Shown here piece after piece: positions 27,679-64,000 of a DNA stretch of 64,000 nt (positions are counted from its first letter, which is position 1; each line of letters opens with the position of its first letter). Made by a program: the position numbers and the translations under genes. This DNA comes from Blasia pusilla. Its lineage: Eukaryota. The notes under the pieces were generated by a model. The model was not told the DNA's origin and searched no databases. It worked only from the letters and a program-made list of their open reading frames with translations. The DNA lies in contig CM114271.1 of assembly GCA_050084515.1 (NCBI GenBank), forward strand, positions 31,434,001 through 31,498,000, read 5' to 3'.

Positions 27679-30600
27679 ATGGCGGACAAGGACAAGAAGA
27701 AACTGAAGGTCATTCTCAAGCTTCCCAAGTCTCATCAGAAATTTCCAGCAACAGCACCTTTACAAGGGGGAACACAGTCTGGAGCGAATTCGTCTGCCCC
27801 TGCTTTTTCAACCCCTTCTCATTTCTCAGCATCTCAAGATCACCGCAAAATTGTGCAATCTCATCATGGGGCTGTTGCATCATCCTTGGGGCTGCTGGCA
27901 CAGTCCGCTTCTGGGGCTTTCAACTCCTCTGTACGATCTACTTCCACCTCCGTATCAGGTCCGTCTCCGGCACCACTGGCCCATGTCTCATCCCCCAATC
28001 ACCCTCTCACACCACCTAAGAAGAGGAAGTTCAAGACTGTAGAGCAGAGCGGAGCTTTGGGGGTCGGAGCGTTAGTGGTTGGTTCTGGTGGTGTTAGCGA
28101 GGTTGTTGCAGCTGGCAAGGATGAGGGCATTAAGTCTGCAGGAGCAGCAACAGCGGCAGCAGTGGGAGGAGCTTCTTCCCCTGCGCCGCTGCCACCACCG
28201 GTCAAGAAATCTCACAAGGTGTGTATTCAACAATATAGTGTTTCACTCTTGCTGTAACGGTTTACCTGTTCGCCTAATTTAATAGCACAATCTGTAATAA
28301 CCTTTCTCGGTATACTTTTTAAAGCCCTACTTCAAGTCATTGTTCTGGAGCCGGAGTGTAACTCCACTTCCTTAACATGTTAACGAGAGCGAATTGTGAG
28401 GTACGTGGTATCAGTCACCTGTAGACTGTTGATAGACTCGTCAAGGACATCTTTGTCTGGTAGTTGGTAAGCATCTGAGGCCTTAGTTTCTCTAAAGGGA
28501 GTTCCAGGTCAATAAGTTCCGTCTTCGTGTAACTGTTGATTAGGTTTTGGACATTGTTGCACGGCTTGGGAGCCCGGGCACGGATTTCTCACTTTGAGGA
28601 GCAACATAGTCAACCTTCTGGCGGCCGCGTGACTCATATCTGGAATTATTTTGCAGAAGCAAGTCAAACCGGAGACCAAAATTGATGCACCACCACCTAA
28701 TGTACTTCCAGGTATGATGCAAAAAGTCCGATATCAAAAGATATTTATCTTTTCGTCTCTTGAAATGAGGAGCTATTCTTAATTTTGCGGCCTCATTCAT
28801 TTGGGGATTGATGGACAGGCTCATCGGCATATCTTCATGTTTCTTCCCAGCCTCTATCCAAAGTGCTTCTGGAAGGTGTCCTCGACAAATTGCAAAAGTA
28901 TGTCCACACAATCTTATTGTGCTAGTTATGGAGATGTGCTATGATGATTCACCCAGTGTCTGTGAGTTGTCTTCCCAATGTGTAAATTATGGGACTTTTG
29001 ATCTGGTTATTTTTGGTGAAATGTTACAGTCCGGTACTGGCAACATTGCAGTTGCCTCCTTGGTACCTGAATCATCTTGAAATTGGGCTCAGGGCTCTTT
29101 CTAGGAGCTCGAGTCTGCTGTCTGTTTGCACGCGTTTGGCATTGGACATGGAGCTGATATAATTGACATGCCATGGTACAGGAAAGACACATATGGGGTG
29201 TTTGCTGAACCTGTGGATGCTACCCAGGTGATCGCTGTGAATTGTTTGAGTTTGTTGAGGTGCATTCCATTAGCTTATTATGGTCCATATTTGATTAGTT
29301 TTAGTGTGGAAGTTGTTTGTACTACCTTACAATATTGGATATTCCTGCTGAAAGTGTGCCACTTCTCCAATTCTAACCTTAAAAATGTCGTGGTCACCAG
29401 CTACTTCGTTTCTCTCTGCTGATTTTGATGTGGTGTCTCCAGGTTCCAGATTATTATGACGTGATCAAGGACCCTATGGATTTTGGTACCATGAGGAAAA
29501 AAATAAACAAGGGCTCGTATGGGACAATAGAAAGTTTTGAGGTTTGCTCTCTCTCTCTCTCTCTCTCTCTGAGGTGATGGGGAAAACCTGGACCCAAAGA
29601 AGACCCGTAAAGCAGGCCAAATCTTGGACGAAAAAGGTTCAAGAGATTGTGCAAGCTCCCAGCAGGGCCTGAACTGTGGGAGCAAGATGAGACAGCATTC
29701 GTGGATACCATAACCAAAGCAGTAGGCAAACGCTCACAGCAGAACAGCATGGAGGAAGCCATGAAAATGTCTGACCTCTCTCTCTTGATGGTATATCCCT
29801 AGAAGTCAGAACTGAAGAACTATTTGCGGGGAACCCCTTGCTTGGGAACCCGGCTCAAGTTCAAGTTCAAAACGGGCGCAATCCCCTTGAACCATAAGAA
29901 AAGCAGGATGGGAACACAACTAAACTCTTGCGCCTTGTGTGACGATGGGGACGAAACCTCTAGTCATTACTTGGTCTCCTGCGCAAAATTCACAACACAC
30001 AGAGCAAGAGCATATGCTGATATTGCTAAGCTGGTAGCACCAGAATTGTTCAACACATTCAGTAGCCTTGATTCATTGCCCAAAGCTGCTGCACTGGTAA
30101 GTAATGTCTATTGGGGATCCCAATCAGGTAAAGTAGATTGTGTGGTGAAGAGTTTCTTGGTTGACACTTGGAAGCTGCGCACAAACACGTTATTTGGTCA
30201 GCACTCACACTATATGAGAGTGTCTCCCTCCTCTCATATGGTACCTTCTTCACTTGCTTCTCTCTCTACACCCATCCCAGTCTCAAGCACCGTCCAACCA
30301 GGGCGCAGGGTCTATGGTCGCAAGGCTACGACAGGCACTACTTAATGAGTACAGTCTCTCTCTCTCTGTGTGTGCACCGTCCAATCAGGGCGGGGGTCTA
30401 TGGTCGCAAGGCTACGACAGGCACTACTTAATGAGTACAGTCTCTCTCTCTCGCACAGTCTCTCGCCCAAGATGCGGTCATACCAGGGCTACTACACGAG
30501 ATCCCATCAGAACTCTGCAGTTAAAGCACCGTCCAACCAGGGCGCGGGGTCTATGATCGCAAGGCTGCAACAGGCACTACTTAATGAGTACAGTCTCTCT

Positions 30601-33600
30601 CGCCCAAAGCTGCTGCACTGGTAAGTAATGTCTATTGGGGATCCCAATCAGGTAAAGTAGATGTGTGGTGAAGAGTTTTTTGGTTGACACTTGGAAGCTC
30701 CGCACCAACACGTTGTTTGGTCAGCACTCACACTATATGATAGTGTCTTCCTCCACTAGTATGGTACTTCCCTCACTTCTTCCTCTCTCTACACCCATCC
30801 CAGTCTCAAGCACCGTCAACCAGGGCACGGGGTCTATGGTCGCAAGGCCACGACAGACACTACTTAATGAGTACAGTCTTGACTGGAGAGTTCAAGCACC
30901 GTCCAACCAGGGCGTGTGGTCTACAGTCGCAAGGCTATGATGGGCACTACTTAGTGAGTACAGTCTCTTGACTGGAGAAAAAGCTCCACCTGGTAACACC
31001 AGAATTGTTCAATTTTATTGTAGCCTGGATTCATTGCCCAAAGCTGCTGCACTGGTAAGTAATGTTAATTGGGGATGCCAATCAGGTAAGGTAGATGGTG
31101 TGGTGAAGAGCTTCCTGGTTGATACTTGGAAGCTCCGCACATTGTGTGGTCAGCACTCACAAAATATGAGAGTGTCTCCCTCATATGGTACCTTCTCACT
31201 TCTTCCTCTCTCTATACCCATCCCAGTCTCATGCACTATCCAACCAGGGCGCAGGGTCTATGGGTGCAAGGCTACAACAGGCACTACTTAATGAGTGCAG
31301 TCTCTCTTGACTGGATATCCTGAACAAGCAGAACGGAAGAACTATTTGTGGGGTACCTGTTGCTCGGGAACCTGGCTTCCAAAGTTTGAGTTCAGGATGA
31401 GGGCAATCCCCATGAACCACAAGAAAAGCAGGACTGGAACACAACTAAATTTTTGCACCTTGTGTGATGATGGGAATGAAACTTCCTGCCATTTCTTGGT
31501 CTCCTGCACAAAATTCATAGCACTGAGAGCAAGAGCATATGCCTAACATTGCCAAGTGGCTAACACCAGAACTGTTCAAGACATTCTGTAGCCTAGATTC
31601 ACTGCTCAAAGCTGCTGCACAGGGAAGTCGTGTGTATTGGGTACCCTAATCAGGTAAAGTATGGAGTGTTGTAAAGAGCTTCCTGGCTGACTCTAAGAAG
31701 CTTGGCACCAACACTTTGTATGGTCAGCACTCCAACTAAATGAGAGTGTCTCCCTCCTCTCATATGGTACCTTCTTCGCTTCCTCCCTTCTTTACACCTA
31801 TCCCAGTCTCTAGCTCTGTCCAACCAGAGTGTGGGGTCTATGGTCACAAGGTCACGACAGGCACTAGTTAATGAGTACAGTCTCTCTGTATTGGGGACCC
31901 AAATTAGGTAAAGTAGATGGTGTTGTAAAGAGGTTCCAAAAGTCAACTAGGAAGCTCTTCACAACACCATATACTTTACCTCCAACATTCTGTATGTTCA
32001 GCACGGACACTACATCAAAGGCTCTTTTCTCATACTCTCTGCATTTCTTCTTCTCGTGGCACCCATCCCAGTCTGTCCAACCAGGGCATGGGGTGTATGG
32101 TCGTGAGGCTATGCCACGCACTACTCAGTGAAACAGTCTGTCTCTCACTTTGTACCTTCGCCACTTCTCTCCCTCTGTGCACCCATGCCAGTCTCTAGCA
32201 CTGTCATATCAGGGTGTTGGGTGTTTCGTTGCAAGGCTATGACAGATATCTTTTAACGAGGACTGGCTTGCTTGTGATGATGGGGATGAAACCTCTAGAC
32301 ACTACCTGTGTAAATCTCACAACACAGAGTAACAGCTTATGCTGAAATTTCCAGGCTGGTAAGGATAAGATCTACCCAATGAGGATAGTTTCAGTTGCAG
32401 CAAAGTCAGTGCAAGCTTGGGATGTTTTCACCTAATGGAATCATATCTCAGGTGAAAGGAAATGTGACATACCACCAGAACTCTAATCCTTCAATGCTAT
32501 ACTCTACTCTTCTAAAGTCTGGTGCCCAGTGCCAAAGGAATGGCCCAAGATTCTCCACAAACTCTGTGGCAATGCTTGGGAATTTTGGAAAACGACTCCT
32601 CATGATACACTAATGGCTAGATTTGGTGTGGTACCAAAGGATATTCATTGCACAAAAAAATATGATCACATTCCTCCTTCACGTCTTGGTTACCATGAAG
32701 GATGACCCCAATGTCCTCTCTGCAATAGCCCTCAAAGCATCCTTGGAATGCTGCTACCAAAATAACAAATCATTACCACAGCTGCACAGAATGGCTCTGA
32801 AAATGTGGCATCAATTCATGATGTGTCAAGAAGGCTCTGTTAGAGGAGCTGTGCAAGACTCACACAGTTGGGATAAGCACAAAAGCCTTAGGGAAGGAGT
32901 TGCAGTAAGTCTTAGTCTTCTATTGAAAGGATGTGCAAAATTACCACTCTTTCATGAACACTAGAGAGATTGCATCTGTGTGCCTATCAGATAGAGTCCT
33001 GACTGTCCAAAATGTGGCCATTCTACAGGCTGATATATATCTAATATGTGGCAATGCAATGCGCTACAATGGACCAGACACGATATATTACAAGCAGGTA
33101 ATGTGTGAAAGGTTTTAGGCTGGGATGCTGATGATGTTAACCTTTCATGCATGCTGCATTTTGATAGCTTTATTTTGGTTCCTCACAGGATCTTGGTTTG
33201 TCCAGGCACGGGCTATCAAGGATATGGCTCGCAGGGCACTGGAAAGTATTAGAAGTCAGCTTGCAGGGGAAATTCGGAAACCTGTATCACACAAGAAGAA
33301 ACCACCTCCGCCCAAGAAACCTCACTCCAAGAAACCAACTCCAAGCAAAGTGCGGTTTGATGTTGCAGGTTCAGACTTTGCCTCAGGTGCAACACTGGCT
33401 GGGGATGGAGAGGTCGGGGGATGGTCTAATTCTACTGTGGATGCGGGGAAGGCTAAGAAAGGGGCATCAATGGAGAAGCTGGTGGGCATGGGTGAGGATT
33501 CTGAAAGTGCGTGGGCCTTCCAAACTGGTCCTACTGAAGTCAAAGTTGATGCACAAGACGAGCCCTCAGGTATATTCTTGTCAGCTTGTTTGTTGAGTTG

Positions 33601-36600
33601 TCTGTTGTGTATCCACCAAGTGAGTCAGCCATGTGTTGTCTCTAAAGGGTCTGGAGGTGTGAAAGTTACCTTCGGGGTAGGGCCCTGCTAGAGTGGGGTC
33701 CTTTTTATTTTTGGGTTGAGGAATTCAATTTGCTTCGGGCTCCTCGAGTAAGAGTTTTATGTGTGTGGTTGATGATGTCTGCATTGGAATGCTTCTTTAG
33801 CCATTCATTTCACTTCTAAGGGGCCTGGTTCTCTGCTGTAACTGCTTAATTTTGAATGAGTCATGTAATGAATACTAGAGAGTTTCTGTCTCCTTGCATC
33901 CACTCTCCTTAATAGTTCATATCGGTGTCTTCAGGTGGTTTGTGCTTTGTAATGAGTATGACCAATTGCTGTCACAGTGAACAAGAACACTGAATTTATG
34001 AGTAACATGGTTGGCAAGGGGCACAGTTTAAACGAGTGATGGTGTGATTTTGTAGGAGTTGCAGCTAGACCTATGGGCCCAAAGGATGGTCGACGCCCTC
34101 TTTCTACTGATGAATATCATCGGAATACTTATAAACCTAGACTGCTTCCAGCTCACGGCCAGGGTCCGCCTCTTGCGGCTGTTGGTGGGGAGCTACGACA
34201 ACTTTTACCTGTAAGTCCCTTTTTCAACCCAATAATGAGTTGAAGTGACCCTTTCTAGTTATTGACTGCAGTATCATCTGGGATCTGGTCTGGAGCTAAT
34301 GATTGGTTTGTGCCTTGTCTATTTATCAGGTGGGAAGCCAAGTGGAGCATGCATACTCCAAAAGCTTAGCCCAATTTGGTGCTATATTGAGTCCAACGGC
34401 TTGGCGGTTTGTTGCTAGGAAGCTGCAAAAGGTTATTGCGCCTAACACCCCGTTTGGCCCTGGGTGGATTGGAGAGCCAGGTGTCTCTGTGGAGCTAAAG
34501 AAGCCATTGGTTGTAAATGCTCCATCTCAAACTCCTCAGTCTGTTCAACTTGTTGTAGGATGTAACACTGCAAGTACTTTGGAGACTGCAAGTGTTCCAT
34601 CCCCTACAGGAGTCTTACCGAGAGCTGCTGCTCCGGTTAAGAGTTCTAGCCCTGCTGTTTTGGCCGGGGCATCTCCCGTTAGTTCACCCGCTTTGCCAAA
34701 AAATGCAGCAACTAATCAAGCAAGTGCTGATCGGTTGTCAGGTAGTAAAGCAGGGCCAGGATATTCATCGGGATCTCTGGGAAGATCATCCTCTAAAGCC
34801 AGTTCAAGTCAAACCGTTATCTCCAGCTTGTCCAAGGCTGCACAAACTCAGTCTAGCATCTCACCTAGTAGAAGTGTTGAGCCTGTCTTGAGTGAAATGA
34901 CATCAATTACAGCAGCCAGTGTTGTCTCTGGAACTATGGCAAATTTTTCCTCTGCAGTTTCAGAACAGGGGCACATAATGGGCGCCCATAGCAGTTACAC
35001 TGTTTCTGGACAGTCAGCTCCTGTTACTGTGCCTCCACCAAATTTCTCTCCAGGCACAGGTCAATCAGACTCTGCTGTGGTTTCCAATCCAGGCGTCAGT
35101 GGTCAATCAGCACCTATGAACACATCTGGTTATTCTCCAGTCGTTGGACAATCAGGATCTGCAGGGGGACAAGTGCCAGACTATGGGTCGGGTGTTGTGC
35201 AAGCTGGTACAAGTGCTATTATCCCAAAATCTACTGGAGCTCCCAAATCAGGTCCAATTACTGGCACTTTGTCTAGTTGCTCTACAGTAGGCGTCCAACA
35301 GAGCTCTGGTGCAGGTGCATTGTCCAACTATTCCTCTGCAGGTGTTCAAGCAGGATCTAACAGTTCATTGTCAGGCTTCTCCCCTGGCATAGCAAAGTCA
35401 ACGCTTGGTGGGGGTACCATATTGAGTTATTCTTCAGGAGGGTCACAGAGCATTTGTATAGGACCTTCCACCCTCTATCCTTCAATAGTTTCACAGTCTG
35501 GGTCAGGTGTCAGTAATGTATCGAGTTATGGTCCTGCTATTTCAAAGTCAGGGCATGGTATTGGTGCTGTGTCGAGTTTCAATACCACAGGTTTACAATC
35601 AGGTCTGCCTGAGCCCAACTACTCATCTGGAGCTTCTCAGTCAGGGACAGCAGGAGTTGCAAGTATGAATTATGCATCTGGAGCTGGGAAGTTGGGCTCA
35701 GCTGTAGGCAACATTACAGCCTATCAATCAGCAATTGGGCAAGCTGGGCTAGCTGTTGGGACTGGGTATCCGATGGCATTATCACAGCCTGGCCTCGGTG
35801 GAGGGGTGATCCCTAGTTTCTCTTCTGGAGTGGTTCAACCAAGTATGGTTGTGATACCTGGTTACTCTTCTGCAGGAAGTGGACAATCGGCACTTGTTAC
35901 AGGTGGGATGTCTAATTTCTCCTGCAGTCCTTCTCAGTCTGGTCAAGGTGTAGGCCACTCTCCAAGTTATCCCTCTGGGGTAGGTCAAATGGGCGTTTTT
36001 GACATGAAGTCGGAGAAGGTACTTCAGTCAAGATCACAGCTTGGTGGTCTTCCTGGCTCAATATCAGATATGCAGGCCAGAAATGGAGGATCGGAGGAAG
36101 TGATGGGTGCAGGGATTGTACATAATACTGGTGTGAAGCAGAATCGGTCAATTGATGGTGGAAGTTCCTCTAGTGATGGTACAGGTGGGCCCCGGTTAGT
36201 TTGGACTCAACAGGGTCCTAGTGGCATGAGTTCCCAGGAGCAGGCAGCTCGGGCAATGAACTTGATTGTTGGGGCGAAAGGATTCACTCCCTCATGGAAT
36301 GGCAGCTTGCCTCATGGAGGGACAAGTTATGCTTTCACTCCAGTTACATCATCAGTTAATCGAGGCGATGTGAGTTTACAGGCGAATGTACAAGCTTGGG
36401 CCCAAGCTCGGGTTATGGGTTTAGCTCAGCAGCAAGTCGAAGTTAAGCAAAAGATTTCTCCTGCAGTTCAAAGTTTTCACCCACAGACTTCTCAATTGAA
36501 ACTACCACCAAGCGTGCCACAACTGCAACCTCACATGTATGGAGAGTATAACGTTCATTCTTCCAGGCTTCCTTCACACAGTACAGGACCAGCACAGCCT

Positions 36601-36879
36601 AATTCAAGTCCTCAACACCTGGTTCAGCAAGTTGAGTCGGGAATGGCCAAGTCTGGTGGGCCAGAACTGATGGTGACCCTCCCTCTCCACTCTCAGTCTG
36701 GGATGAGGCAAATGGGGTCTATGCAACCAAGTTCATTGCAAGGCTCTGTACATCCTAGGTCTATGCCACCGGACTTGAATGTAGCATTGCAGTCACCTTC
36801 TGCTTTACAATCACCTCCCGTTCAACAGACTTCAACCATAGCAAATTCCCAGCAGCCTGACTTGAAACTCCAATTATGA
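27679..36879 (+). CDS. BRD1/BRD2/BRD13-like: Bromodomain protein of the plant SWI/SNF BRD1/BRD2/BRD13 type (~1318 aa, 9 exons)
   Basis: GT-AG exons 27679-28218, 28657-28711, 28819-28897, 29182-29227, 29443-29541, 33029-33097, 33206-33569, 34056-34210 and 34330-36879 join in frame (3957 nt). Bromodomain LDKLQKKDTYGVFAEPVD..VPDYYDVIKDPMDFGTMRKK...ICGNAMRYNGPDTIYYKQARAI. Family motifs PFGPGWIGE, PPDLN and C-terminal QPDLKLQL. Confidence 0.9.
29571..32360 (+). mobile_element. Nested tandem array of at least nine 5'-truncated non-LTR retrotransposon (LINE) 3' ends in BRD intron 5
   Basis: LINE ORF2 C-terminus with CCHC motif CALCDDGDETSSHYLVSC. The terminal unit ...ggtcgcaaggctacgacaggcactacttaatgagtacagtctc(tc)n ends near 30357, 30445, 30597, 30878, 30967, 31305, 31885, 32142 and ~32265. 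Starts right after (TC)n at 29548-29570. Confidence 0.88.
30471..30524 (+). pseudogene. 5' fragment (~54 nt) of cytosolic 5S rRNA fused to a LINE 3' end
   Basis: gatgcggtcataccagggctactacacgagatcccatcagaactctgcagttaa matches nt ~2-55 of plant 5S rRNA (bryophyte-like variant, from memory). The 3' half with box C is absent. Confidence 0.85.
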
Positions 36880-40900: not shown

Positions 40901-41449
40901 ACAAAGTCCTGTGGGGAACGTCGACCTATCTGATATCCGAGCAGGAGGATGGGCGGGCGAGAGGGAGTGCTTGAGATTAAGCTTCGTAATGTTTGCCAAG
41001 AAATTTTAGGTTGTGAGACTGATCGTTTCTTCGTGCCTCTTTTACTGGGCACTCACGGACAAGGATCGACCCGAGAGCCGCTTGAGGATCAGTGTTCAAT
41101 CTACCAGAGTGTACTTTGACTTCAAGCGATTGTGCAGCGCGAACTTATTAAGAAATGTTCTGCTGGAGCGAGGGTAGTATGGTGACCTTCGTCGACAGTG
41201 GTAATTTCTGACGAGTATGAGAAGTAAAGCGTTGTCGCTTTAGCTTGTGCGCCTGTGTGTGATGGTGAATTCTCCAGGGGATGCTAGGATGGGTTTTCGT
41301 TAGGAAGTAAAAGAACGATTACGACGTTGTGACGATCGGTTCCCAGGGGTAGCCTTTGTTGCCGGAGAAGATAGTGTCGTGTTGCAGGTGGGAAAGGAGC
41401 TGGAGGTCTTGGGATGTGATTTTCGGTCTAATCTTTTGGTCGGAGTGTG

Positions 41450-42592
41450 ATGCAGAGAGAGGCAAGTGGTAGAGATATGGACGCCGAAATATGGAAGCAT
41501 TTGCCGGACGAGTTATTGGAACCCATTCTTGGACGCTTGCCATGGTGGAGCAACCTGGCAATGAGACTTGTATGCAGATCATGGAACAGGCTGCTCCGCG
41601 GCTTGGAATTCTTGAGGAACACCAGGCCACCTTCTGACAGCGGACGACATCCTTGTTGGATCTCTCGAAGCAGGGATGCCAATTACGCCATCCGAGATTG
41701 GACAAGAAACAAAAGCAGCACGTTATCGAACTTGCCAGCCACAGACCCACCGTTTCGAGTGGTTGCTGCCGCTGGTGGCCTTCTTCTGATGGTAAATGAC
41801 ATCCAGCCTTCGAAAATGATCAGCATTATTGCTAACCCATTGAATGGAAGCCGAAAAGAGTTACCTCCTGTTCCGGAACTCGGTGACTCGTGCATGTGCA
41901 AAAGTCTAGGAATGGTGGAGGACAAGAAGACGAACACACACAAGATAACAAAGGTGGTCTATAGTGAGGTTGCCAGCTTTTCGGGCGTGACCGCGCAAGA
42001 AGCGATCTATGTCTTCGATTTGAAACGGGACTCCTGGGAGATGGCGTACAAGACGCTGAGACCACATGATGAGTACCGAGCTATCATAAAAGCGGTTTTC
42101 TTGCAAAATGATTTGTACATTCTGACTGCGATGCCATCGTCACATGAGGAGCGATGGCTTTACCGTGTGTTCAAGGTGCTACCCACTCACTGGGACGAAA
42201 TTGCTCCAGATTTTTCGTCCAACCATTCTCCCTCCGAACATCTGACAAATGTGCACTTGTTCTGCCATCGCCGAGGTCTCTTCTTGGTGGGAGACAGGAG
42301 AGTGTTGAATTCCTCCACTGTGCGCATTTGGAAGCTAAACCCCGCCATGACGGCATGGGAGATGGCTTTCGTGATGCCAGATGAACTGCTGCTGCGGCTT
42401 TACGTTCCACGCCGAGGGATTCGCTTCAAGGTTTACATGGAGGGGGATTACGCTTGTTTTAGTGGGGATTTCCGAGACACGATCATCACGTGTGATATCC
42501 TCTCAGGGGTATGGAGCTTGAGCACCGGAAGTTACAAGTTTGTTGGCGACTCGGAGTTTCTCCTTGAACCGAGACTAGAAATTGTTTTGTAG
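41450..42592 (+). CDS. Intronless F-box protein with a beta-propeller (FBA/kelch-like) C-terminus
   Basis: F-box MDAEIWKHLPDELLEPILGRLP...RLVCRSWN, then VVAAAGGLL...IIANPLNGSRKELPP, VFDLKRDSW and terminal EPRL, all typical of plant F-box families. Confidence 0.88.
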   Translation: MQREASGRDMDAEIWKHLPDELLEPILGRLPWWSNLAMRLVCRSWNRLLRGLEFLRNTRPPSDSGRHPCWISRSRDANYAIRDWTRNKSSTLSNLPATDPPFRVVAAAGGLLLMVNDIQPSKMISIIANPLNGSRKELPPVPELGDSCMCKSLGMVEDKKTNTHKITKVVYSEVASFSGVTAQEAIYVFDLKRDSWEMAYKTLRPHDEYRAIIKAVFLQNDLYILTAMPSSHEERWLYRVFKVLPTHWDEIAPDFSSNHSPSEHLTNVHLFCHRRGLFLVGDRRVLNSSTVRIWKLNPAMTAWEMAFVMPDELLLRLYVPRRGIRFKVYMEGDYACFSGDFRDTIITCDILSGVWSLSTGSYKFVGDSEFLLEPRLEIVL

Positions 42593-48060: not shown

Positions 48061-51000
48061 TTATGGCCTTGTCCACTTTGAAGTAGTTCTCTCAGAATTT
48101 CTCGCCACTCCACTAGAAGAGAGGTCACTGCGTTCTGCCTCAACAAGGTCCCGCAAGTCTTCAAGATCAATGCTCATTGACTTCATCGCTGCCGTAAGGT
48201 TATCCAAAAGCCTGTCCTTTTGTGCTTCAACCCAGTCTTGAATTTCCACAGAGTTGCGAATCTCCTGGAGGGAGCACTTGGGTGCCAAAGTTGCATGCCA
48301 TCTCTTGAAATCAGCAGTCACCTCACTCAATCTGCACAATGCGTCAAATTCACAATCCAGACACTTAGTCCATGTGGACTTTCACATCCCAGCTCTAGAA
48401 TCATCATGGAGAAGAATTGCTGCAAAGACCTTGGCCACATATAAATAGATGTCATGAAAAAATCTGCATATCTGCTGAGAACTTGGGGAACAAACGAAAG
48501 CCATCTGAGGTCTTCAAATATACCACAATACCTTTGGACAGGCACTCCAGTTTGTTATTAGTAACCCAAAACATTCAAGTCTGGTCTAGGAGATACAAAT
48601 CATCTCGTGATGTGAAAAAGGCACCTAGTTTATTACAGCCATAGAGGTGAAATAAGAGTTGTGGTGACGCAACTAACCTGTCTAAAATTTTCCGCATGTT
48701 TTTCCTCTCACTTGGATGATAATAAACATCAATCACACCTTCCTTCCGTTGAACTATATCTTCCACTCTTCCAAACTTTCCACACCTCTGAAGGATGAAA
48801 TTCTCAGATGCCTCAAAGCCAACATTTGAAAGTCTGACAACAGTTGTCACGATTGGCTCTCCTGTGGTGATGCGGCACCAGCGACCTCCCAGGTAAACCC
48901 TGCCAGCTGCCAATGCGCTCTCTCGAGCCTCATCTGTCTGATAGGTACATAAGTGGTAAATAAATTTGTCAGATAATAACACATACAAGTAAATAAGCTC
49001 GAGTAGTGTTCCCACTTCCAGATCAAAACCAAATCCTTCTGGGCACCTTCAAGGTTGATGTAGGAAGGTAAAGTTCATACACATCAGCATCTAGGCTAAC
49101 AGACACAGACGGATTACATACCACTGGGCATATGCACAGCTCTCTTAAATCTTATAAGCTCCATGGGATTCTCTCCTGAAATGAAATTCCGGGACAGCTG
49201 AGTTTGTTCACACCAAAATCTATCATTTAAACTTCTCTTTACACATTAACCTTCAAGGTTGATGTAAGAAGGTAAAGTTCATACACATCAGCAGCTAGGC
49301 TGAATGTCCTTTAAACTTCTTTTCATACAACTTCAAATCGGAGCTATGGAGAGTGAAAACATTTTATTGCTTTGTTTAGACAGTTTTCTTAACAAAGCCT
49401 AGAATGTCATGCATGAGATTTGGATAAACCAAATCCTACATGGTAGGTTATGTAAAATACAGTTAGTATTTTACATAACCTACCATGTAAAATACTAACT
49501 GCACCTCAGTATTTGTAGGGCCCTGGACTTTTATGTCATGAAAAGTTACTTTGAACTCAGTTTTCTCAGCCACTATACCACTTCAGATTTGCAAGGACTT
49601 CTAAAATAGGAGTAACTTTGATTGCAGATGTGTGAAATATGTACCTTAAATTCCACCTGAGCTGAGTAAGTAGCACCCTCTTCACGAGCCAATTCAGACC
49701 GGGCAATTTCTCCATGTGCTGACAGCATCTTTTCTATGGCACTTATGGGCATTGGATACGGCAAACCCTCAACAGCAACAAAATGAGATCCTTTAGAAGA
49801 AGTTGGGCGAACGCTGCGATCGTTACTTACTGGGCCATCCATTTGTCTAGGGCGATTAGGAAGAGTACTTCGGATCCCATTCACAGGTCTGCTACTTGAG
49901 AAAATTCTCTTCGATGGCTCTGCTATGGGATTTCGGACACTTGTAGGTCTGCTATCATACCTCCTGGGACCAGAGCATGGCTCTGTTATCACTGTTGAAC
50001 CCTTGATGAAAACCTTCTCTTTCCGAAGGGCTTTAGCTAATGCTTCAGGAGTCTGCAAATAAACAGAAGTGCCCATGTTACATAACTAAGATGATTACCC
50101 TTGATGTTTTCGGACGACCACACAGGTGCTTGTGAGGCAGTCAAAGTTTAAAAAGAGTGTCGCACCCCAAACCCCAATTGAAATTCTAGTGTCAAATCAA
50201 ATGAATTACACACTGACTGAGTTACTCCCTATCCGAAGGGCAACACCTTGAATATTCATGAAATCACAATAACTTAAAAAGACATTCCTGATTACATCTG
50301 GTATGAGAAAGTTCAAAGTAAGAGATAGTCTCTGGAGACCCTAAACAACTACAAACATGATTGTGGCAAGCTATAGTGCTTCTCTACAGACTAATCAATT
50401 AGCTCATTCCGAACAGAAAAGGGCTCGAGAGACTGCTACTCCCACTTGAACCATTTTCCATAAGCAGCTAAAAGAATTAATTTGCTAGGCACATCAAACC
50501 CCATTATTCCAGTGACACACATGAATGGAGACCTGTGTTGATACTTCAAATTTGTACTTCTGGTCTAGAAAATGTTAATACTGCACAGGTAAATGTGTGT
50601 GGAAAACGCACCGAAAAGTCCACAAAGCCATACGTGAATCGAAGACCTGAACCCTTCGGCTGCATAGCCTGTGCCCTGACGATCTCACCACAATCTTCAA
50701 ATGCTGCTCGGAGATCCACCTCAGTGGCAGAGAGGGGTAGGAAGCGGATAAAAAGCCCATGGCTCTCCAACACACTCACTGTTGACGAACCTGAGAATTT
50801 ACCATTAGTTGATCCTGATCCTGTGGCAACCTCTTGCTCTACATCTGATGCCTCCTCGTAGTCATCAGCTACAAGGTCAGAATCCTCCTCTTCGTCCAAG
50901 TCAGTATCGTAACTGTCAAAAGTCACTGGAGGAGACCTACCAACATGATCTGGACTTTGTCTGAGTGGCCCCCGCTTCGAGTCATTTTGAGAATCCTGTC

Positions 51001-52471
51001 TGGGATTTCCGAAATTTTGGAGGCGTCTCCAAGTGCTTGTGTCATTTGCAATCTCACCAAGACTGGAATTCGCCTTTCCAGAATCAGTGTGAAATTCATC
51101 GGAACCAAGCTGCAATTCTCCATTATTCTCAAATGTATCCGAGCTAGCTTTCAGTTCCACTCCTGCTGCTGAGATATCGCCCTGTTCCGAGTTTAAAGCT
51201 AACTTCACCTGCTCCTCTCTAACTTCTGGTGTTGCACCTGAGTCTGCTAGCAAATTCAGATCCTGCTGAAAACTGGAAGGTGCTGTACTGATACTAGATT
51301 TCCAGTTTGTTGTCAACTCGTCTACAATGTCTTTGACTATCACACGACTACCTCCGGTCTCTTTGAGAATTGTGGTGAGGCTGGGCCACTTTCCTTCATG
51401 GTCATCCTTGTGCCTGCAAACAGGCAATCCGACTTCAGAAACAGAGAAGGCGACCTTCACAAAAAAGAGACCTGGGTACCATCACCATCACGTGATTGAA
51501 ACTTTCCATCCAGATTCTCCACATCTGTGCGTGCACAGCCATACAATCAGCGACTGGGAATGAGGAGTAAACTGCTCCACCAGCTTGAGCGCTATATACT
51601 GTGAATACACCATGAATGTTCCAAATGACAAGTGGGATCTCACGAAGGGTACATACTTTCGGATAAAATTCTCTACAAGTGTGTATCTCTCTGCTCTTGA
51701 CAGCCGCTCTCCTCTCTTCTTCGGCAACTCTGCAGATTCTTCCAAAGCTGCAGCATGTGCAACGAATCTTGTATGCCTGGCATATGTTCTATTCTGATGC
51801 ACTGGCAATCAGATCAGGACGAGTGGGCGTTATTCAGTGCACTGAGAAATCGACGAAATGGACATTGCCAGGTTTCTTGAAACGACTACAGCCCGAGTCT
51901 GAGAAATTCATGGGAAGGCAAAAAAGGAATGACCTTCAGAGAAACGTGAATTCCACCGGTGCGATATTGTTATGAGACAGCAAACACATGCCGGTGTTCT
52001 ATATAAAAGACTCCTATCATGAAGAGCTGTGAATACAGAGACTAGGGGATTTTTAAAGCACTAGAGGTCGATCCCGCTAAAAGGAAATCAACCACACTCC
52101 ACAAAACTTCTGACGATTGACTTTCCAAACGTATGACAGCTTCATCTCGTGAAAGGAACAATCTCCTGAGCCGCGAACGCCCATGTTATAAACCAGAAAT
52201 AATGCCATGAGTTGGTAAGCTGAGAATAATTTGAAAGCGCATTTCAGCGACTGCGATTGAATTCGGAGAAACAGAGGTACCATATATCTCCATCTCACAT
52301 TGTAATTAGCTATTCCATACCAGCATTGAAGGGTACGATTCTTCGCAGAGAACACCTACCCACAGGTTCGAAGGCTGGCTGCGTCCATGTGCGAGAAACG
52401 GACACTGAGCTCAGGGAGTGTAGCCTGCGGAGGCCAGCAAAACTATGAGCCCATGCTCGAGAAACAGCCAT
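48061..52471 (-). CDS. Putative organelle-targeted nucleic-acid-binding protein: At3g52170-like HTH domain plus three RRM-like domains (~665 aa, 6 exons)
   Basis: GT-AG exons 52471-52360, 51801-51657, 51413-50612, 50052-49645, 48937-48678 and 48331-48061 join in frame (1998 nt). N-terminus is R/S/A-rich. Contains RLSRAERYTLVENFIRKHK..GKWPSLTTILKETGGSRVIVKDIVDEL and RNP motifs LFIRFLP...YGFVDF, VAVEGLP...AQVEF and VRLSNV. Confidence 0.8.
49437..49501. repeat. Two overlapping perfect inverted repeats in an intron
   Basis: 24-bp arms at 49437-49460/49466-49489 and 17-bp arms at 49460-49476/49485-49501. Confidence 0.9.
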
Positions 52472-56029: not shown

Positions 56030-57447
56030 ACATGAGAAAGTTGGAGGTCTAGATGTAACCAAAGGCCGTGGAGCATGTGGTCTATTAGGTGGACAAGGTG
56101 GTGGATATGCCCATGGAGGAGATAGAGGCCCACAAGCTAGAGAGGTTGAGGGAGACCTTAGTTAAGGGGTTAGGATGGTCGCCAAGTTAGAGCAATGGCA
56201 CCAACAGATTCCAACGATGGCACTACGATTTCTTTGATTTCACATTAATGGCATCTACATCATATGGAGCAAGTAAGAGCACATATTATCCCAGATGAAT
56301 GTATGGGGCTACACAAATTGAAGAAATAATTGTGGTTACATGGGGATAAGTAGCATAGTTGGATCAAAAGTTAGAGATAGTCAATAGACAGACGAGACTC
56401 CCTTAGTCATTTACATTTCTCCGTACAATGAAGACTTCATCGATGGTTTCCAATCAAACTACTTAGAAGTTGGATGTCGGTGGTGTATAGACATGACGAG
56501 TGATGGATAAGATGAGAACTTTGATACCTATTACTGATACTCAAAAGAAGCTCCTGCCAAGTATGTTGTTGGTGCAGCCAGAACCATGTAATGTATCATA
56601 GACTACATCCATAATTTTCTTCCTAAGATATTATGATATTAAAAGGCATGTCCACCAAGTTTTTTTTATTGGTTGCCATGCTATATCTAGTCATGTAGAT
56701 GATATTACTACTTCATATTTGGAGGTAGTAATACCCTTAGAGCCCATGCTCGAGATGTCTACTTTTGGGTCATGGCATGCCATGATTGATAGGCTGGAAA
56801 ATATTGACTGGACTTGTTAAAGAGTCAGCCATGGTTGCACATGAAGTGGTGTTGCTAGATAACCAATGTGATGTTGTTAGTTGGGTTCCTCTGATAGGTC
56901 CAGTTTATTGTTTACAACATGTGTTTTTGGGATGCAACCGTTCATGCTAAGGAAGGCAGATTTTATATATGACACATTTGCTGTTCATATCCCAACAGAG
57001 ATGGGTGTCTTGAAGAGCATATATTTCCATGTAGAAGATGTTCCTTTTGGGAGCTCAATTAAGAAGCTCTAAAAATATTTTGATGAGCATATGCGAACGG
57101 CTTGGAATGAGGCCTTTTTATCAAGTTGAGAGAGGTCAAAGGAGCACAAGGTTTTAAGCAATGCTATGTTGTCATCCTTGGACACCACATTCATTGTGTG
57201 ACAATTTGTGGAGGAGGGTTTAAGAGTGTTGGATGTCTTTGGAGGGACCAACATTAGGTTGGCTACGGTGCTATAAGCGAGTATTTGTTTATACCAATAC
57301 TTGTATGTGGAACGAGGTGAAACTAATATGCAAGTATCACTTGAATAGGTAGCTTATTTGCGACTATAATTTTGGAAATTGTATCAACAAATGCAAGGTT
57401 ATTAGAGTTCCTTGCTATCTGAGATAGGATCTGGACCAGATGGGTAC
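56030..57447 (+). mobile_element. Ty3/Gypsy copy 3 (old, heavily decayed): gag end, protease and DNMT3-like N-terminal part
   Basis: Aligns with 15515-15730 and 16340-16470. 57211-57447 translates to EEGLRVLDVFGGTNIRLATVL*...YQYLYVE...QGY*SSL...DLDQMGTI. Confidence 0.75.
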
Positions 57448-58280
57448 TATCGTGAGCATACACATTGTTGTTACCAAACACACACAAAAACACTCATGAT
57501 CCCATGCTAATTCATAGCATCCAAACAACGAGACAAGAAGTACCAAAATATCTCCAATAAAATAAGATCCAATCTCTCTCACAACACCACAGTTCTCACA
57601 TGTGTGCACTCTCACATGTCTCTCTCAATGTCAAACCAAACCCACTCTCATAATGAGAGGCTTGGGTTAAACTCACAAGGCAAGGAACCATAGCTCCGCC
57701 GCCTCGTGCCAAGAGGTTCAACAAAGAGAGAATAAACTCTCAAGCTCTCTCTCTTTGAAGTATACCCCTCCCCTCTCCCAAGCTCTCTCTCCATGGTGAC
57801 CTATGCTCCCAAGTCACCTCCTTGGCTCTTGACCTGATGTAGGAGGTCAAGGGGCACTTACCAAAAAAATAAAGTCGATCCACAAGACACATCCTCAAGA
57901 AATTCCCCGACGTAGCAAACGAAACGGCAACCCAAAGTCTCTGGTCGGCGGCTATCGCCACTCCTCATCCACCCCAATTACAACCGTAGGCAAAGGACAA
58001 GAGGCTACTACCATCCACCGGGCCTCTACGCCCCGAGCCATATACTCAAAATGGTACTTACCTAAAGTATTAAGTTCCTCAATATGGCTCCAAATGAGCC
58101 AAAACGAAGGGGAAATCTGCTCTCTCAGGTTTCGCGGGGCCTCAGCAGGTCATCCTCGACCTTCTAAGCCTGTCCTCCACAACTCATGAAGGCGCTCTAC
58201 TAGATCTCACCGATCTATCCTAAAAGATGTCATACTTGTCGTACGCATAGATATTGTTACACAACATACATTATTGTCAC

Positions 58281-58506
<226 letters not shown>

Positions 58507-58834
58507 CATGCTAACTCATGGCATCCAAACAACGAGATAATAAGTACCAAAATATCTCCAATTTCCCCCTAGTTGGTGGTTAGGTCCCTCTAACTCGAGA
58601 TAGCCATCTATCCCTACCTACCATGACATACATCTCTCGCACGCTAAGAGCAAGAAGGCCGGATGCTCATGTGGCCCCATCGTTAGTCGCCTTCTTGTCA
58701 TCCATGTCACAGACACAAGTCGGAATGTAGAACTACCTACTCTATGTGCACCACGGGCATAACCACACAACATACAACGCAAGCCTATAACAACTACAGC
58801 TAAGCTCAGATCAACTGCACTGTCAATGTTAGTA

Positions 58835-58975
58835 TACATCTAGGATACATCCATCTTCCCTTAGGAACCCTAGTGAGAGGCGGCGTCAAACATGCCATAG
58901 GTCATCCTCTCGAACACCCATTACAGACTAGCATAATGCTTGCACCACGGGCGGAACCACACAACATACACCGGA
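58835..58975 (-). pseudogene. PHD finger (C4HC3) at the integrase C-terminus
   Basis: RCMLCGSARGASIMLVCNGCSRG*PMACLTPPLTRVPKGRWMYPRC. Copy 2 supplies GWHMAC and WMCPRC, giving a complete C4HC3 consensus. Confidence 0.85.
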
Positions 58976-61900
58976 AGCCTGCAAGAACTACCGCTAAGCT
59001 TGGATCAACTATACCATCAATGTTTGGAAGATGACATAGCGCAAAGTTACGCACATGGTCCTTCCAAACCATACCATCGCGTCCCTCCAATAAGAGAACA
59101 CCGGATGGCAAAACCTCTCACACTCTCAAGATGGTGCGCCTTGCAGTCACATCCAACGTCGTGGGTAGCGTCTGCTGCAAGTAGACATAGTCTCCCTGAT
59201 GAAACCTCCGGAGTAGGTCGATAACCACCTCCTTGAATAGTCGCATACCTCAATGTATCCCGATGTTGCGCAATCGCCAAGTTCTCAAATGGCATGGGCA
59301 TCACTCTCCCAAAAAACTCAGGCCTCTGAGAACATGCTCGCATTCATACATCAGGGTCATCAAGGTTCAACATCTCACCAAAATCTCAAGGAATGGCCAT
59401 AGGTAAATCTGGCTCTCGGCCATAAAGCAACAAGTATGGTGAGAAAAACGCTAAGGATGCCTGCCTATTGGATCTATATCCCATTGCCAACCACATAAAC
59501 TGAAGGTCTCAATCTCCTAGATGACCTCTCTGCAAGCCATACTTGCGTAGTCCTATCTTCACCATCTACACAACCCGCTCCGCTAGTCCATGCGCCTCAG
59601 GATGATCTTGCGAAGTAGTGCGGTGGTCGATCAGTGCCTGATCACACAAGGCCTGAAACTCCCCACAGAACTCTGTACCTTGGTCTGTCAACACCTCAGT
59701 TGGTACGCCGTAATGACCCAACACTCGATCTAGGAAGGCATCCGCTACTCCCTCACTCGCTTTGTCAGGCAATGCAACCAACTCCATCCACTTCAATAGG
59801 TGCTCGACCATCACCAACACATAACGACTATGGTGCTCCGTCAAAGGCAAAGGTCCTGCAAAATCCAAACTCCATCTATAACCTAAACCCATGATCGGAA
59901 GTGAATGCAACTGTGGAGTCAAAACATTGAATGATGCTCGGACTCGATCACACACCATGCATCTGGCAACAAACTGCTGAACATCAGTCTGCATGCCTTG
60001 CCACCAATACTGAATCTGGAGCAAGTTGTACGTCCGCTTCACTCCAAAATGACCGAACTCCTCGTGGCCATGATGCACCAAACGTGCTCTCTGCGAAGGA
60101 TGAGGCACTACACGCACTCTACCATCCTCCCACACTCGCAACACATGTGTGCCCTCCCACCGGAACTGTCTGGCTCGCTGTAGGATCTGATCCCGCTCTC
60201 TACTACCCACTAAGCTTGCAACGTTGCCAGTACGCAGATACTCCAAGACCACTCCATCTTCGTGAATATCTTGGCCACCTGTCGTCTCCTCACCAACCTC
60301 TGGATCTAAGGACTCTCCATCAGACCTCGCCATCGAAGTCTCAGAAATCTGACTCTCCATAGCCAACAAGCCCAAATAGGCTGACGCATGCCATCCGGGC
60401 ACCAACTCCTCATCACTCTCACCATGCCAACGAGCTTCAGTCGCATTTCGCTGACTTGCGCATGGGTTACGGCTCAAACCATTTGCATTGTGGTTGAGCA
60501 TCCCAAGTTTATGCACCACTTGGAAGTCATACACCTTCAACAAAAGAGCCCACCTCACAAGCTTCCCTGTAAGCTTGTTGGACTCCATCAACCACTTAAG
60601 TGGCTGATGATCAATAATGATGGTAAAGGGATTGTCGAATAGATAACATCTAAAATGTGCAACAGCCCACACTACAGCCAAGCACTCACCCTCATACGAG
60701 CTATACTTTGCCTCTGCAACGTTGTTCGAGCGACCAGCGTAAGCCACCACGGACTCTCCACCATCATCCTCATGCTGGGTGAGCACGGCTCCAAGCCCCA
60801 ACATGCCTAAATCGGTATGCAACTGGAAAGGACGCCCCTTGATCGGTCTCCTCAATATGGGTACGGACGTCAATTTGTCCTTGAGCATCTGAAATGCTCT
60901 CTCCTCCTCATCCCCCCAGTGCCACTCTTGATCCACCTTGGTCAGCAAGGTTAGCGGCTTTGCAATTGAAGTGAAACCCTTGACGTACCGTCAATAGAAG
61001 CTCGCCAATCCTATGAATGCATGAACTCGACTCATATCTGTAGGGCATGGAATGCGTGAAATAGCCTCTACCTTCGTTTGTTGCATACCAAGGCCCCTTG
61101 GATATATCGTATCATCCAAGTACTCAGTCTAGTCGTAGAAGAACTTGCATTTGCCTAGATATAGCTTTAACCTATGTAACCGCAATTGTCAAAACACCTC
61201 CTCTAGATGTCGCTCATGCTCCTCAACCGTGGCACTTAAGACTGCGATGTCATCAATATAACACCTAGAAAAATCCAAACATGCCAAGATCCTATCCATG
61301 ACCCTCTGAAACTCAACCGTGGCGTTCTTTAACCCGAATGGTAAGAATCGCCACTGGTACAAACAATCCTTTCCGTGAGGATTGATGCCCCAAAATGCCG
61401 TCTTTTGCCTGTCCTCCAATGTGATAGGCAACAGGTGGTATTTGGCTTGCAAATCCAATGAACTGAAGACCTTTGCATGCCCAATCGCATCAAAGATCTC
61501 CGCAGGGGTGGGCATGGCATATTTATTGGACTTTCTCTTCCAATTGATAGGTCAGTAATCTCCACACATTCGCCTATCTGTCCAGTTGCCATGCACATCC
61601 TTCTTGGCGGACAAGACAGTGGTAGATGCATACTCTCCATGCGACATCTCCACTAGTCCTGCTCCAACCAAGTCTTGGCTCCTACTCTGAATTAGAGCCC
61701 TTTCCATATTATTGTACCTATAGGGTCGTCGGAAGATCGGCGTATCACTCGACAACTCAATGCGGATCCATGGACCCTTCATCATATCCAAATCATGCAT
61801 ACTAAATGCAAAAAAACTCCTATAACTCCTAAGGAATTGGTGTATCCGACACCGCTCTCCTCCTGTCAACTTAGGGCCCATATCTAGCTCCCAAGTCTCC

Positions 61901-62214
61901 ATCGTGACTACGGTAGGACTTTCCGGCGTAGATGTTAGCGGTTGCTATGGTGCAACCTCGTTTGGGACAATAGAACTCTCATCTCCACATGCAGTACCCG
62001 GAACCACACTCGATGTTGTGGCTATCATCTCCTGGCGTACCTGCAAAACATCCCAAGAAGTCGAAGGATGTCTCTCCCGATCACCCTTGGTGTGTCGATC
62101 TCCTCAAGTATCGCCCCCAACCACTGCCTCATTCGTCTTGGTAGGCATGGGGCTCACCAACGCAACTTTTGTGAACTGTCACATCCTCAAACGACGTTGC
62201 TCAGCTACTCCTAA

Positions 62215-63165
62215 GCTAAAAAATCCATGACAAGCAGTTTAAGTCCATCGTCTGACCCAAGACATGACGCCGTGATGCCTCTCATAATGACGATACGACC
62301 GGCACTCCTGTGGAGAATCCCATCGCTCGCTCTCACTCATCGGCATTGGGCTCCACCAACCTCTGTACTTGGTCATCCGAAACCAAGCCAGGTTCGGCCT
62401 CCTTGAATGCATAGGCAGCGGGAAAACTCACCAATGTGGGAAAGGCTGCCCGTAGCCTGCCAGTCCTGTTGACCATAATCAATGGCAGTCAATCATGTAG
62501 CCTCACTGCCTAGGATCGACGGCCCGGATCTAATATAGAATCCACCAACAAATCGGAGGGGTGCTCCACTCTCGCATATGCCCTCCGCAACACCTCGTGT
62601 GGTTCCAAGTTGGTCCACCAAAGACGCGGGCGATGTGATTGTGAACCCACACTGGCCGCATCCAACAAAAATGTCGGGCCGATCCATGCGCGCACTTGAT
62701 GTGCACTTGTCACCACACAGGACCTCGAATCGCCCAAAATCAGTATATTCTCCGAATGTATGCTCAAGGATGAGATTGATGCTCTTGCAAGTGTCGCAAG
62801 ATCCGCATCATCTTCCAAAATAACCTAGACCAAGAATCAGCTAATCCGTTACCTTGTCCAGCACATGATTGGCCTTGACATAGCCAACCAGCAATGACCA
62901 AGTCTATGGTCCCTACCCGCTCCAAGTCCTGCACCCCCAACAATGAAATGTCCCTCGGTAGGGAACTTTGGTAGCCTTGAATGGCGGACGCATACGACGC
63001 GTCGGGAAAACGGAGGCGTAACTCCGCCACATGGTGAAGTGAAGCGCGCCTCGCAACATCATCAATCTCCACATATAGGTACTGCTACACGCACACTCCA
63101 GCCTACAAAAGAGCAGCTAACCCAATGTTGATCCCTCCAAAGAGATCCAACACCCGAATACCCTT
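62215..63165 (-). pseudogene. DNMT3-like cytosine-5 DNA methyltransferase domain within the Gypsy polyprotein
   Basis: Motifs in canonical order: I IRVLDLFGGI, II YLYVEID, III DI, IV IDLVIAGWLCQG (PC to LC), RLFW, VI YI.ENI, VIII LLDAASVGSQSHRPRLWWTNL, IX E*ERAMGF, X RRHVLGQTMD. Confidence 0.88.
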
Positions 63166-64000
63166 CTCTAGGATGCATCACACAATCCGAGTGGTGTCCA
63201 AAGGGGTCATAGCAGCACTCATGCCTACTTGGGGTGCCTCTAACCCGTCACACTCTGGTGCAAACGTCTCGCTCCACTCGGTCTGCACATGTTCAGTGGC
63301 TAAGCGTCGAAGCTCCTTAGTCGAGCCCCAAAGCGGTACCTCTCTTCCACGGACTGATGCAGCTACCATGACACTCCTCTACATAGAAATGTCAAGAACG
63401 TGAGTATCCTCTGCATGGACATGTCCCTCAATCAAATCACTAGGCCAAGTGATGGCACTGCTAAGTGCTGCTAAGGTCGCCATCTCTCCTGGCCGTCGCT
63501 CGATCACTGCACCTGTGAATCGAACGGGTAATGAGCTAAGGCGCCCATCACCTGACTCCCATCCTGCTCTATAGGATGCTGACTCATCCCAGTAACCTAG
63601 GGAAAATCCCATCGGTTATAACACTGCTCCACCAACCAAGACGTCGTAGGACTCTACATCAGTCACTATCGCCTTGGCTCGCACCACAGACTTATCCATA
63701 GGATCCTCACCATGACCTCTTGTTGGGTGATACTCGCTCCACCCAAGGATATCTGTATCCAAAATGGACAACGCTCCACATCGGCTCTCGTCAAGCCCAA
63801 TCCTCTGAATGACGCTTTTCCCAACATCAAGGATTGCCCTCCTGAATCCAACAAGACGCGTTGCGGACTAAAAGCTCTATCTCCGGGACTCATGAACTGC
63901 AAGATCTCTCCCTGGTTATCCAACAACACAATACCACGAGAAGCCATGGCACTCTCTATCACGGGTCTAGTGGATATCTCCGCCATCCTAGCAGCCGCAG

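Follow-up and report, generated by a model that had tools for sequence, protein, structure and literature searches.

A decayed PHD finger at the integrase end of a Gypsy-Dnmt3-type retrotransposon in the liverwort Blasia pusilla

A short stretch on contig CM114271.1 of the Blasia pusilla assembly GCA_050084515.1 raises the question of whether one retrotransposon can carry a histone reader on its integrase together with its own DNA methyltransferase, and whether the two domains work jointly. A sequence-only reading of this DNA had described a PHD finger directly behind the integrase of the element, and had proposed that the finger steers integration toward a particular chromatin state with a co-packaged methyltransferase marking the new copy. 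The subject offers a testable handle on how transposon-encoded methyltransferases and integrases choose chromatin, and on whether PHD fingers do for retrotransposons what chromodomains do. In this study, the finger, its element and its relatives were investigated in the window (the whole 64-kb stretch of DNA that was analysed, to which all coordinates refer) using domain searches, structural comparison and phylogenetic analysis.

The finger and its element in the window

Translation of the minus strand revealed the C4HC3 spacing of a PHD finger in two copies of the element, at 58836-58970 (copy 4) and 19866-20000 (copy 2), within 5 nt of where it had been placed before. With stop codons read as X, Pfam scans gave PF00628 matches of 25.5 bits (E 1.4e-5) in copy 4 and 34.6 bits (E 2e-8) in copy 2 against a curated cut-off of 24 bits, which indicates that neither match arose by chance; this search had been suggested as a check, and its outcome upheld the claim. 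The location behind the integrase, where chromoviruses carry a chromodomain, was likewise confirmed. In copy 4, the finger shares a reading frame with the C-terminal (SH3-like) region of the integrase and a short linker (58971-59213, minus strand; third-frame translation of 59618-58700), residues 913-1037 of the relative P0003 match 59213-58836 (tblastn), and in both copies alike tblastn places the finger 3' of the integrase. The same finger terminates intact relatives. Judged by homology, the stretch is shown to be the decayed C-terminal PHD finger of a Ty3/gypsy integrase.

Both fingers are damaged. Copy 4 retains six of the eight zinc ligands (His is replaced by Pro, and the sixth Cys by Tyr) and has one stop, which falls at the Trp preceding the His ligand in the alignment with intact relatives; copy 2 retains seven of eight (second Cys replaced by Tyr) and has two stops in the finger. 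Because each copy has lost ligands and holds stops, the consensus quoted in the sequence-only reading correctly describes a C4HC3 finger but is a composite of two damaged ones and not a single real sequence. An extra stretch of ~80-90 bp, found in copy 4 only and absent from copy 2, lies directly downstream of the PHD at 58740-58832 and duplicates the 5' part of the PHD-coding sequence (cf. 58940-59010).

Copy 4 (58836-64000, minus strand) continues beyond the window end. The region 63529-63998 is homologous to residues 101-242 of the Marchantia protein P0099 (tblastn), a part upstream of the DNMT in P0099, and is taken to be the aspartic protease region. A C5 cytosine methyltransferase remnant that appears DNMT3-like follows at 62219-63162; it was detected with PF00145 (28 bits vs a cut-off of 22) and by tblastn with P0011, P0027 and P0099, and it is spread over two frames with 7 stops upstream of the reverse transcriptase (RT). 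The RT remnant occupies 61189-61944 (PF00078, 54.7 bits; tblastn), and RNase H and integrase with its H2C2 zinc-binding domain and rve core occupy 59215-60990 (PF17917, PF17919, PF17921 and PF00665). Within the latter, 59566-60990 is a still-open frame of 474 aa that covers RNase H, the integrase zinc-binding domain and the rve core; stops are present in 59215-59565, and a frameshift lies near 59214. The order of domains shown by these homologies is protease, DNMT3-like methyltransferase, RT, RNase H, integrase and PHD. It contains the Ty3/gypsy Pol order of protease, RT, RNase H and integrase (Pfam and tblastn), and the PF00145 remnant between protease region and RT is the feature that defines Gypsy-Dnmt3 elements, a Dnmt3-type C5 methyltransferase inside Gypsy Pol.

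Chromovirus identity was considered and rejected: the integrase-to-end translations gave no chromodomain match (PF00385) at E up to 1, and the PHD occupies its place. Self-comparison of the window yielded no terminal repeat pair flanking any copy; the 5' end of copy 4 lies beyond the window, so that a pair is not definable there. A 3' non-coding tail at 57469-58835 (minus strand), common to the other copies according to blastn self-matches, follows the finger of copy 4. It includes a (CA)n/(TG)n microsatellite of ~220 bp at 58281-58502.

Copy 2 (19860-22604, minus strand) consists of partial RT, RNase H and integrase at 20054-22604, with 84% nucleotide identity to copy 4, the finger, and a 3' non-coding tail at 18944-19850 (minus strand) that matches 57469-58739 at 81-87% identity (blastn). 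It is 5'-truncated inside RT and for this reason lacks the DNMT. The claim that finger and methyltransferase belong to the same element therefore stands for copy 4, the only copy with both remnants, and fails for copy 2. Four copies had been reported; we found two that bear a PHD, an internally deleted fragment of the same family at 14845-17663 on the plus strand, and a further weak match (33-35%) at 57037-57314. The fragment has gag-like and protease-region matches, then jumps to the 3' tail, without DNMT, RT, integrase or PHD, and stands tail to tail with copy 2. The facing tails (17118-17662 on the plus strand and 18993-19541 on the minus strand) are 1.3 kb apart with 81% identity, and represent either two old insertions of the same family side by side or a rearrangement.

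The two PHD-bearing copies are pseudogenes and long dead. Copy 4 has 17 stops (10 from RT to the end of the PHD and 7 in the methyltransferase) in addition to its frameshift, copy 2 has 13, and the alignment of the two, over 2688 sites, has 421 differences (285 transitions and 136 transversions; K2P 0.18). Since they died long ago, their nesting among other repeats, which had been offered as support for chromatin targeting, says little about targeting; the copies are too old for an insertion preference to be read from them, and being dead they can do no more than point to the family.

Relatives and the history of the two domains

With the 474-aa frame as query, a search of longer proteins returned 496 matches, and the best 120 of the 496 were listed and analysed; domains were counted with family HMMs built on these proteins. 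For the 120 listed relatives, the counts were 83 with a PHD, 64 with a methyltransferase and 45 with both in one protein. The finger directly follows the integrase in 77 of the 83, starting a median of 9 residues past the end of the integrase model, and lies between RNase H and integrase in 6 of the 83. All eight zinc-ligand columns are intact in 76-77 of the 77 listed relatives with a C-terminal PHD, several other positions are near-invariant, and ligand conservation holds across relatives down to 31-40% identity in RNase H and integrase. This conservation is strong evidence of selection on the finger in live elements. Three intact relatives that were scanned (P0054, P0037 and P0062) reach 41.5-42.6 bits with PF00628. 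Of the 83 listed proteins with a PHD, 42 continue for more than 100 residues beyond it.

A Cys ~22 residues before the PHD is invariant among the listed relatives with a C-terminal PHD (77/77), with an adjacent His in 65/77 (columns 945-953), and a further Cys and His stand a few residues upstream. These residues may form an extra zinc knuckle ahead of the finger, outside the confident part of the structural model described below.

The trees rest solely on alignment columns from RT, RNase H and integrase; those of the PHD were excluded. A single branch, with a FastTree support of 99 (121 rows) and an IQ-TREE SH-aLRT value of 100 (52 chosen rows), separates all C-terminal-PHD sequences and their relatives without PHD from the other rows. 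This core clade comprises 105 of the listed rows and contains Klebsormidium, Closterium, Haematococcus, Tetrabaena, Tetraselmis and Marchantia proteins. The 15 rows outside are the six whose PHD stands between RNase H and integrase and, beyond them, nine without PHD; two of these nine, P0117 and P0119, bear a chromodomain and are among the nearest non-PHD relatives in the tree of listed rows. Two Marchantia polymorpha proteins form the sister group (support 97) of the window's RNase H-integrase frame, which shares 64% identity with P0099. Three Klebsormidium nitens retrotransposon proteins (P0038, P0053 and P0092) fall inside the core clade; their gene models do not extend far enough for a DNMT to be visible, and the same PHD terminates P0092. 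When the DNMT part of P0020 was used as a query for DNMT-bearing K. nitens proteins, four matches were returned, none of them named and all with a PHD; in a protein atlas, P0020 retrieved generic Gypsy clusters only (best score 0.89).

By sequence comparison, the methyltransferase of the clade is DNMT3-like: against solved structures, the top 27 rows for the P0011 domain are DNMT3C, DNMT3A and DNMT3B (best E 4.1e-9), with M.HhaI at 8.7e-6. The family HMM detected a DNMT in 64 of the 105 listed core rows and in none of the 15 listed rows outside. The other 41 core rows begin less than 450 residues upstream of RT and for this reason are not judgeable, and tblastn locates the DNMT of the window just upstream of where such short relatives begin. 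Relatives that seem to have the PHD only were accordingly rejected as proof that the DNMT is optional, and no core row among the 105 that is long enough to judge is without it. The co-occurrence of both domains in the family, which the sequence-only reading had named as a point to check, is thus well supported.

Two placements of the enzyme were found. It lies upstream of RT, as in the window, in 23 listed rows that include Marchantia, Closterium and Tetraselmis, and all named streptophyte rows showing a DNMT (Marchantia and Closterium) have this arrangement. In another 39 listed rows, among them P0054, P0037 and P0062, a DNMT-like domain lies between RNase H and integrase; these belong to a 43-row clade that includes Haematococcus and Tetrabaena. 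Three proteins with the latter placement have no PF00145 match at E up to 0.001, and the family HMM finds the domain there at E ~1e-79 with the catalytic Cys and an ENV-like motif retained. Pfam therefore under-calls the DNMT, because PF00145 misses domains that the family HMM finds.

The distribution of the two traits bears on the idea that the PHD and the DNMT3-like enzyme form one system, in which chromatin with unmodified H3K4 is sought and the new copy or its surroundings are methylated. We consider this idea unlikely. It gains from the clade-defining branch, which bears both traits, and from the 57 listed rows assessable for both, 45 of which have PHD and DNMT together. It gains also from the 43-row clade, in which the DNMT adjoins the integrase-PHD part, so that one mature DNMT-integrase-PHD protein is conceivable. 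Against it, a shared ancestral branch can mean a common history without a common function, and in the architecture of the window RT, RNase H and integrase, and probably protease cleavage too, stand between DNMT and PHD. Moreover, the remaining 12 of the 57 rows have a DNMT without a PHD, which argues that the enzyme does not need the finger. Among the 95 listed core rows with a complete integrase C-terminus, 18 have lost the PHD, including a 12-row clade containing Closterium, and the Tetraselmis rows, so the finger is dispensable; 12 of these 18 visibly keep the DNMT. On the sequence evidence, PHD and DNMT are separable domains, and the idea of a coupled reader and writer, strengthened by their common origin, is weakened by the persistence of the enzyme where the finger is gone.

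Reader class of the finger and its proposed role in integration

The C-terminal 68 residues of P0003 were compared with the PDB, and the best among the matches listed was CHD4 PHD1/2 (E 1.4e-19); PHF12, DPF3 PHD2, KDM5 PHD1, ATXR5, PHF21A, KAT6A, BAZ2A/B, UHRF1 and AIRE were also listed. An AlphaFold2 model of the P0003 C-terminus, made from a 7-row alignment, is a predicted structure of moderate confidence (mean pLDDT 70; 75-84 in the finger) and superposes on DPF3 PHD2 with an rmsd of 1.4-1.7 A over 48 columns (Foldseek, best of the rows listed). The Foldseek rows listed for this model are PHD-containing entries, with titles that include complexes with unmodified H3 or H3K4 peptides (ORC1b, BAZ2A and UHRF1). 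The nearest solved fingers among the matches listed mostly read the unmodified H3 tail, and we hold with moderate confidence, from sequence and predicted fold, that the finger belongs to this class. In the acidic loop before the first strand, successive columns are D in 34/77, D in 21/77 and E in 35/77 of the listed relatives. This loop, which follows the first Cys pair, is present in most listed relatives and absent from the subclade of the window, and specificity for K4me0 is therefore unsure for the window's element.

A finger that reads the active mark H3K4me3 could instead steer insertion to promoters or UTRs, like some gene-start-targeting retroelements; we regard this as very improbable. 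Parallels for such steering exist, since 25 of 86 new insertions of Gypsy-7a_cRei, a PHD-bearing Chlamydomonas element, lie in UTRs (PMC9940879), and fusion of the ING2 PHD or the HP1 chromodomain to the integrase-binding domain of LEDGF redirects HIV-1 integration, with the ING2 fusion directing it to transcription start sites (PMC8149907). No ING, BPTF or TAF3 entry, however, is among the matches listed from the PDB sequence search and Foldseek, and 69 of the 77 listed relatives with a C-terminal PHD have Gly two residues ahead of the His ligand. In H3K4me3 readers, this is the position that we take to hold the cage Trp.

The reading that we prefer, with a probability of about 0.6, is that in live members the finger on the mature integrase binds the N-terminal tail of histone H3 and anchors the integration complex on nucleosomes outside active promoters. 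Because the integrase is released from the C-terminal end of Pol, the finger should stay attached to the mature enzyme. The H3 tail would most likely be bound with K4 unmethylated, because the finger apparently lacks a residue of the aromatic-cage type and resembles that class of readers. Binding would then hold the complex on nucleosomes off active promoters, which are H3K4-methylated, and would fill the role that chromodomains fill in chromoviruses. The methyltransferase would be a second, separable accessory, whose coupling to the finger is possible and is unnecessary for tethering. Known cases of targeting include the chromodomain of MAGGY, which directs integration to H3K9me regions (Gao 2008, as cited), the LEDGF fusions described above that redirect HIV-1 (PMC8149907), and Gypsy-7a_cRei, whose insertions are intergenic 2.6 times more often than expected (PMC9940879), its UTR insertions notwithstanding; the PHD of the latter may be of the other placement, as the figure legend puts it before INT.

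Compared with such tethering, a non-histone role of the finger, in binding a host protein or nucleic acid or in the assembly or stability of the integrase, seems distinctly unlikely. PHD fingers are versatile, the matched PHF12 sits inside the SIN3B deacetylase complex, and the pre-finger Cys and His described above hint at an extended zinc module. The close solved relatives, on the other hand, are all chromatin proteins, and most of the structures listed are complexes with the H3 tail.

The reader class also bears on whether finger and enzyme are coupled. Animal DNMT3 joins a DNMT3-type catalytic domain to ADD, a zinc finger belonging to the readers of unmodified H3K4, and the window's element resembles it in combining a DNMT3-type domain with a finger that is probably of that class. 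The analogy drawn in the sequence-only reading is thus not empty, because the nearest solved fingers mostly read unmodified H3 and the methyltransferase is apparently DNMT3-like; both points would suit a transposon-borne counterpart of DNMT3 with ADD, itself a doubtful proposition. The element differs in that the finger is on the integrase and not on the methyltransferase, and we know of no allosteric link between a DNMT and an integrase finger. A broader scenario, in which one Ty3/gypsy lineage gained, on a single branch before the split of chlorophytes and streptophytes, a DNMT3-type methyltransferase and an unmodified-H3K4 PHD on its integrase and kept both into land plants as a jointly acting system, is speculative and probably does not hold in full. 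If true, such elements would read 'no H3K4 methylation', integrate there and methylate, and would thereby repeat in a transposon the logic of DNMT3 with ADD, and the chlorophyte architecture might even be a single DNMT-integrase-PHD protein.

Comparison with known elements and other features of the window

Judged by its sequence, the window's element belongs, as a dead copy of liverwort type, to the Gypsy-Dnmt3 elements. KnitGypsy-Dnmt3 of K. nitens likewise carries a Dnmt3-type methyltransferase within the Pol of a Ty3/gypsy element, and de Mendoza et al. 2018 (PMC5890265) treated the acquisition as confined to the lineage of K. nitens; a 2025 paper cites only this report for streptophytes. 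In contrast to that lineage-specific report, the clade here also holds Marchantia, Closterium, Haematococcus, Tetrabaena and Tetraselmis. The main text on KnitGypsy-Dnmt3 has no occurrence of PHD, although its Fig. 4c or supplements may draw one, whereas the clade of the window has a PHD. The charophyte Gypsy-Dnmt3 elements would therefore be no curiosity of one species, and would form part of a green-lineage clade, widespread and extending to liverworts, whose integrase typically bears a PHD finger of the histone-reader type.

Chromoviruses such as MAGGY resemble the element in having a small histone-reader domain fused to the end of the integrase. Their reader is a chromodomain that recognises H3K9me, whereas that of the window's element is a PHD with the H3 N-terminus as its expected ligand. 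PHD has been called a 'common accessory domain' of Chlamydomonas transposable elements (PMC9940879, PMC8557442). Among these, Gypsy-7a_cRei is similar to the window's element as a green-lineage Gypsy Pol with a PHD finger, for which its authors suggest a role in avoiding harmful insertions (PMC9940879). It differs in that no DNMT is reported in the text on the element, and in the order of the figure legend, with PHD before INT, which corresponds to the six basal rows here and not to the C-terminal placement. Across eukaryotes, PHD domains co-occur with reverse transcriptase and integrase, and no other chromatin domains are fused to domains of transposable elements as often as PHD and Chromo readers (Grau-Bove et al., bioRxiv 10.1101/2021.11.30.470311). 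That work is at the level of a survey, and its text names cnidarian PYGO-like PHD fusions, not this clade.

The EpiLTRs (bioRxiv 10.64898/2026.05.21.726589) are also LTR retrotransposons with a histone reader and DNA methyltransferase together. Those of Cymbomonas and Euglena combine a chromodomain, an adenine methyltransferase and a DNMT4-related cytosine methyltransferase, whereas the window's element has a PHD and a DNMT3-like enzyme without an adenine methyltransferase; Pfam scans of the element found neither a chromodomain nor a Dam domain. The basal relative P0105 has a precomputed match to the Dam adenine-methyltransferase family PF05869 and a PHD between RNase H and integrase, a combination that recalls the DAM-LTR elements of the 2026 preprint. 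In the texts consulted, Gypsy-Dnmt3 elements, PHD in green-algal transposable elements and EpiLTRs with reader and methyltransferase are already in print. We found no paper in the literature that describes a PHD-integrase fusion and a DNMT in one LTR element, although figures or supplements may show it, and the breadth of the clade (chlorophytes, streptophyte algae and liverworts) with its typical integrase-end PHD appears not to be spelled out in the published texts.

Several other coding stretches were observed in the window. An intact ORF of 386 aa at 41432-42592 (plus strand) encodes an F-box with a KIB1-4 beta-propeller, and its best named relatives are a Marchantia polymorpha protein (49% identity), then one from Calypogeia fissa (41%). 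Together with the place of the element beside Marchantia in the tree, this ORF points to a probable liverwort host distinct from M. polymorpha. An open frame of 311 aa at 50546-51481 (minus strand) has an RRM_1 match of 27.1 bits and may be an exon of a host gene. Four further open frames matched no Pfam family at E up to 0.01, namely 34303-36879 (plus strand, 858 aa), 10236-11867 (minus strand, 543 aa), 27511-28257 (plus strand, 248 aa) and 16047-16721 (minus strand, 224 aa). The first three may belong to other transposons, and the 224-aa frame shares part of its span with the protease-region match in the plus-strand fragment. A repeat block with units of ~300-580 bp and 77-88% mutual identity occupies 29779-31887.
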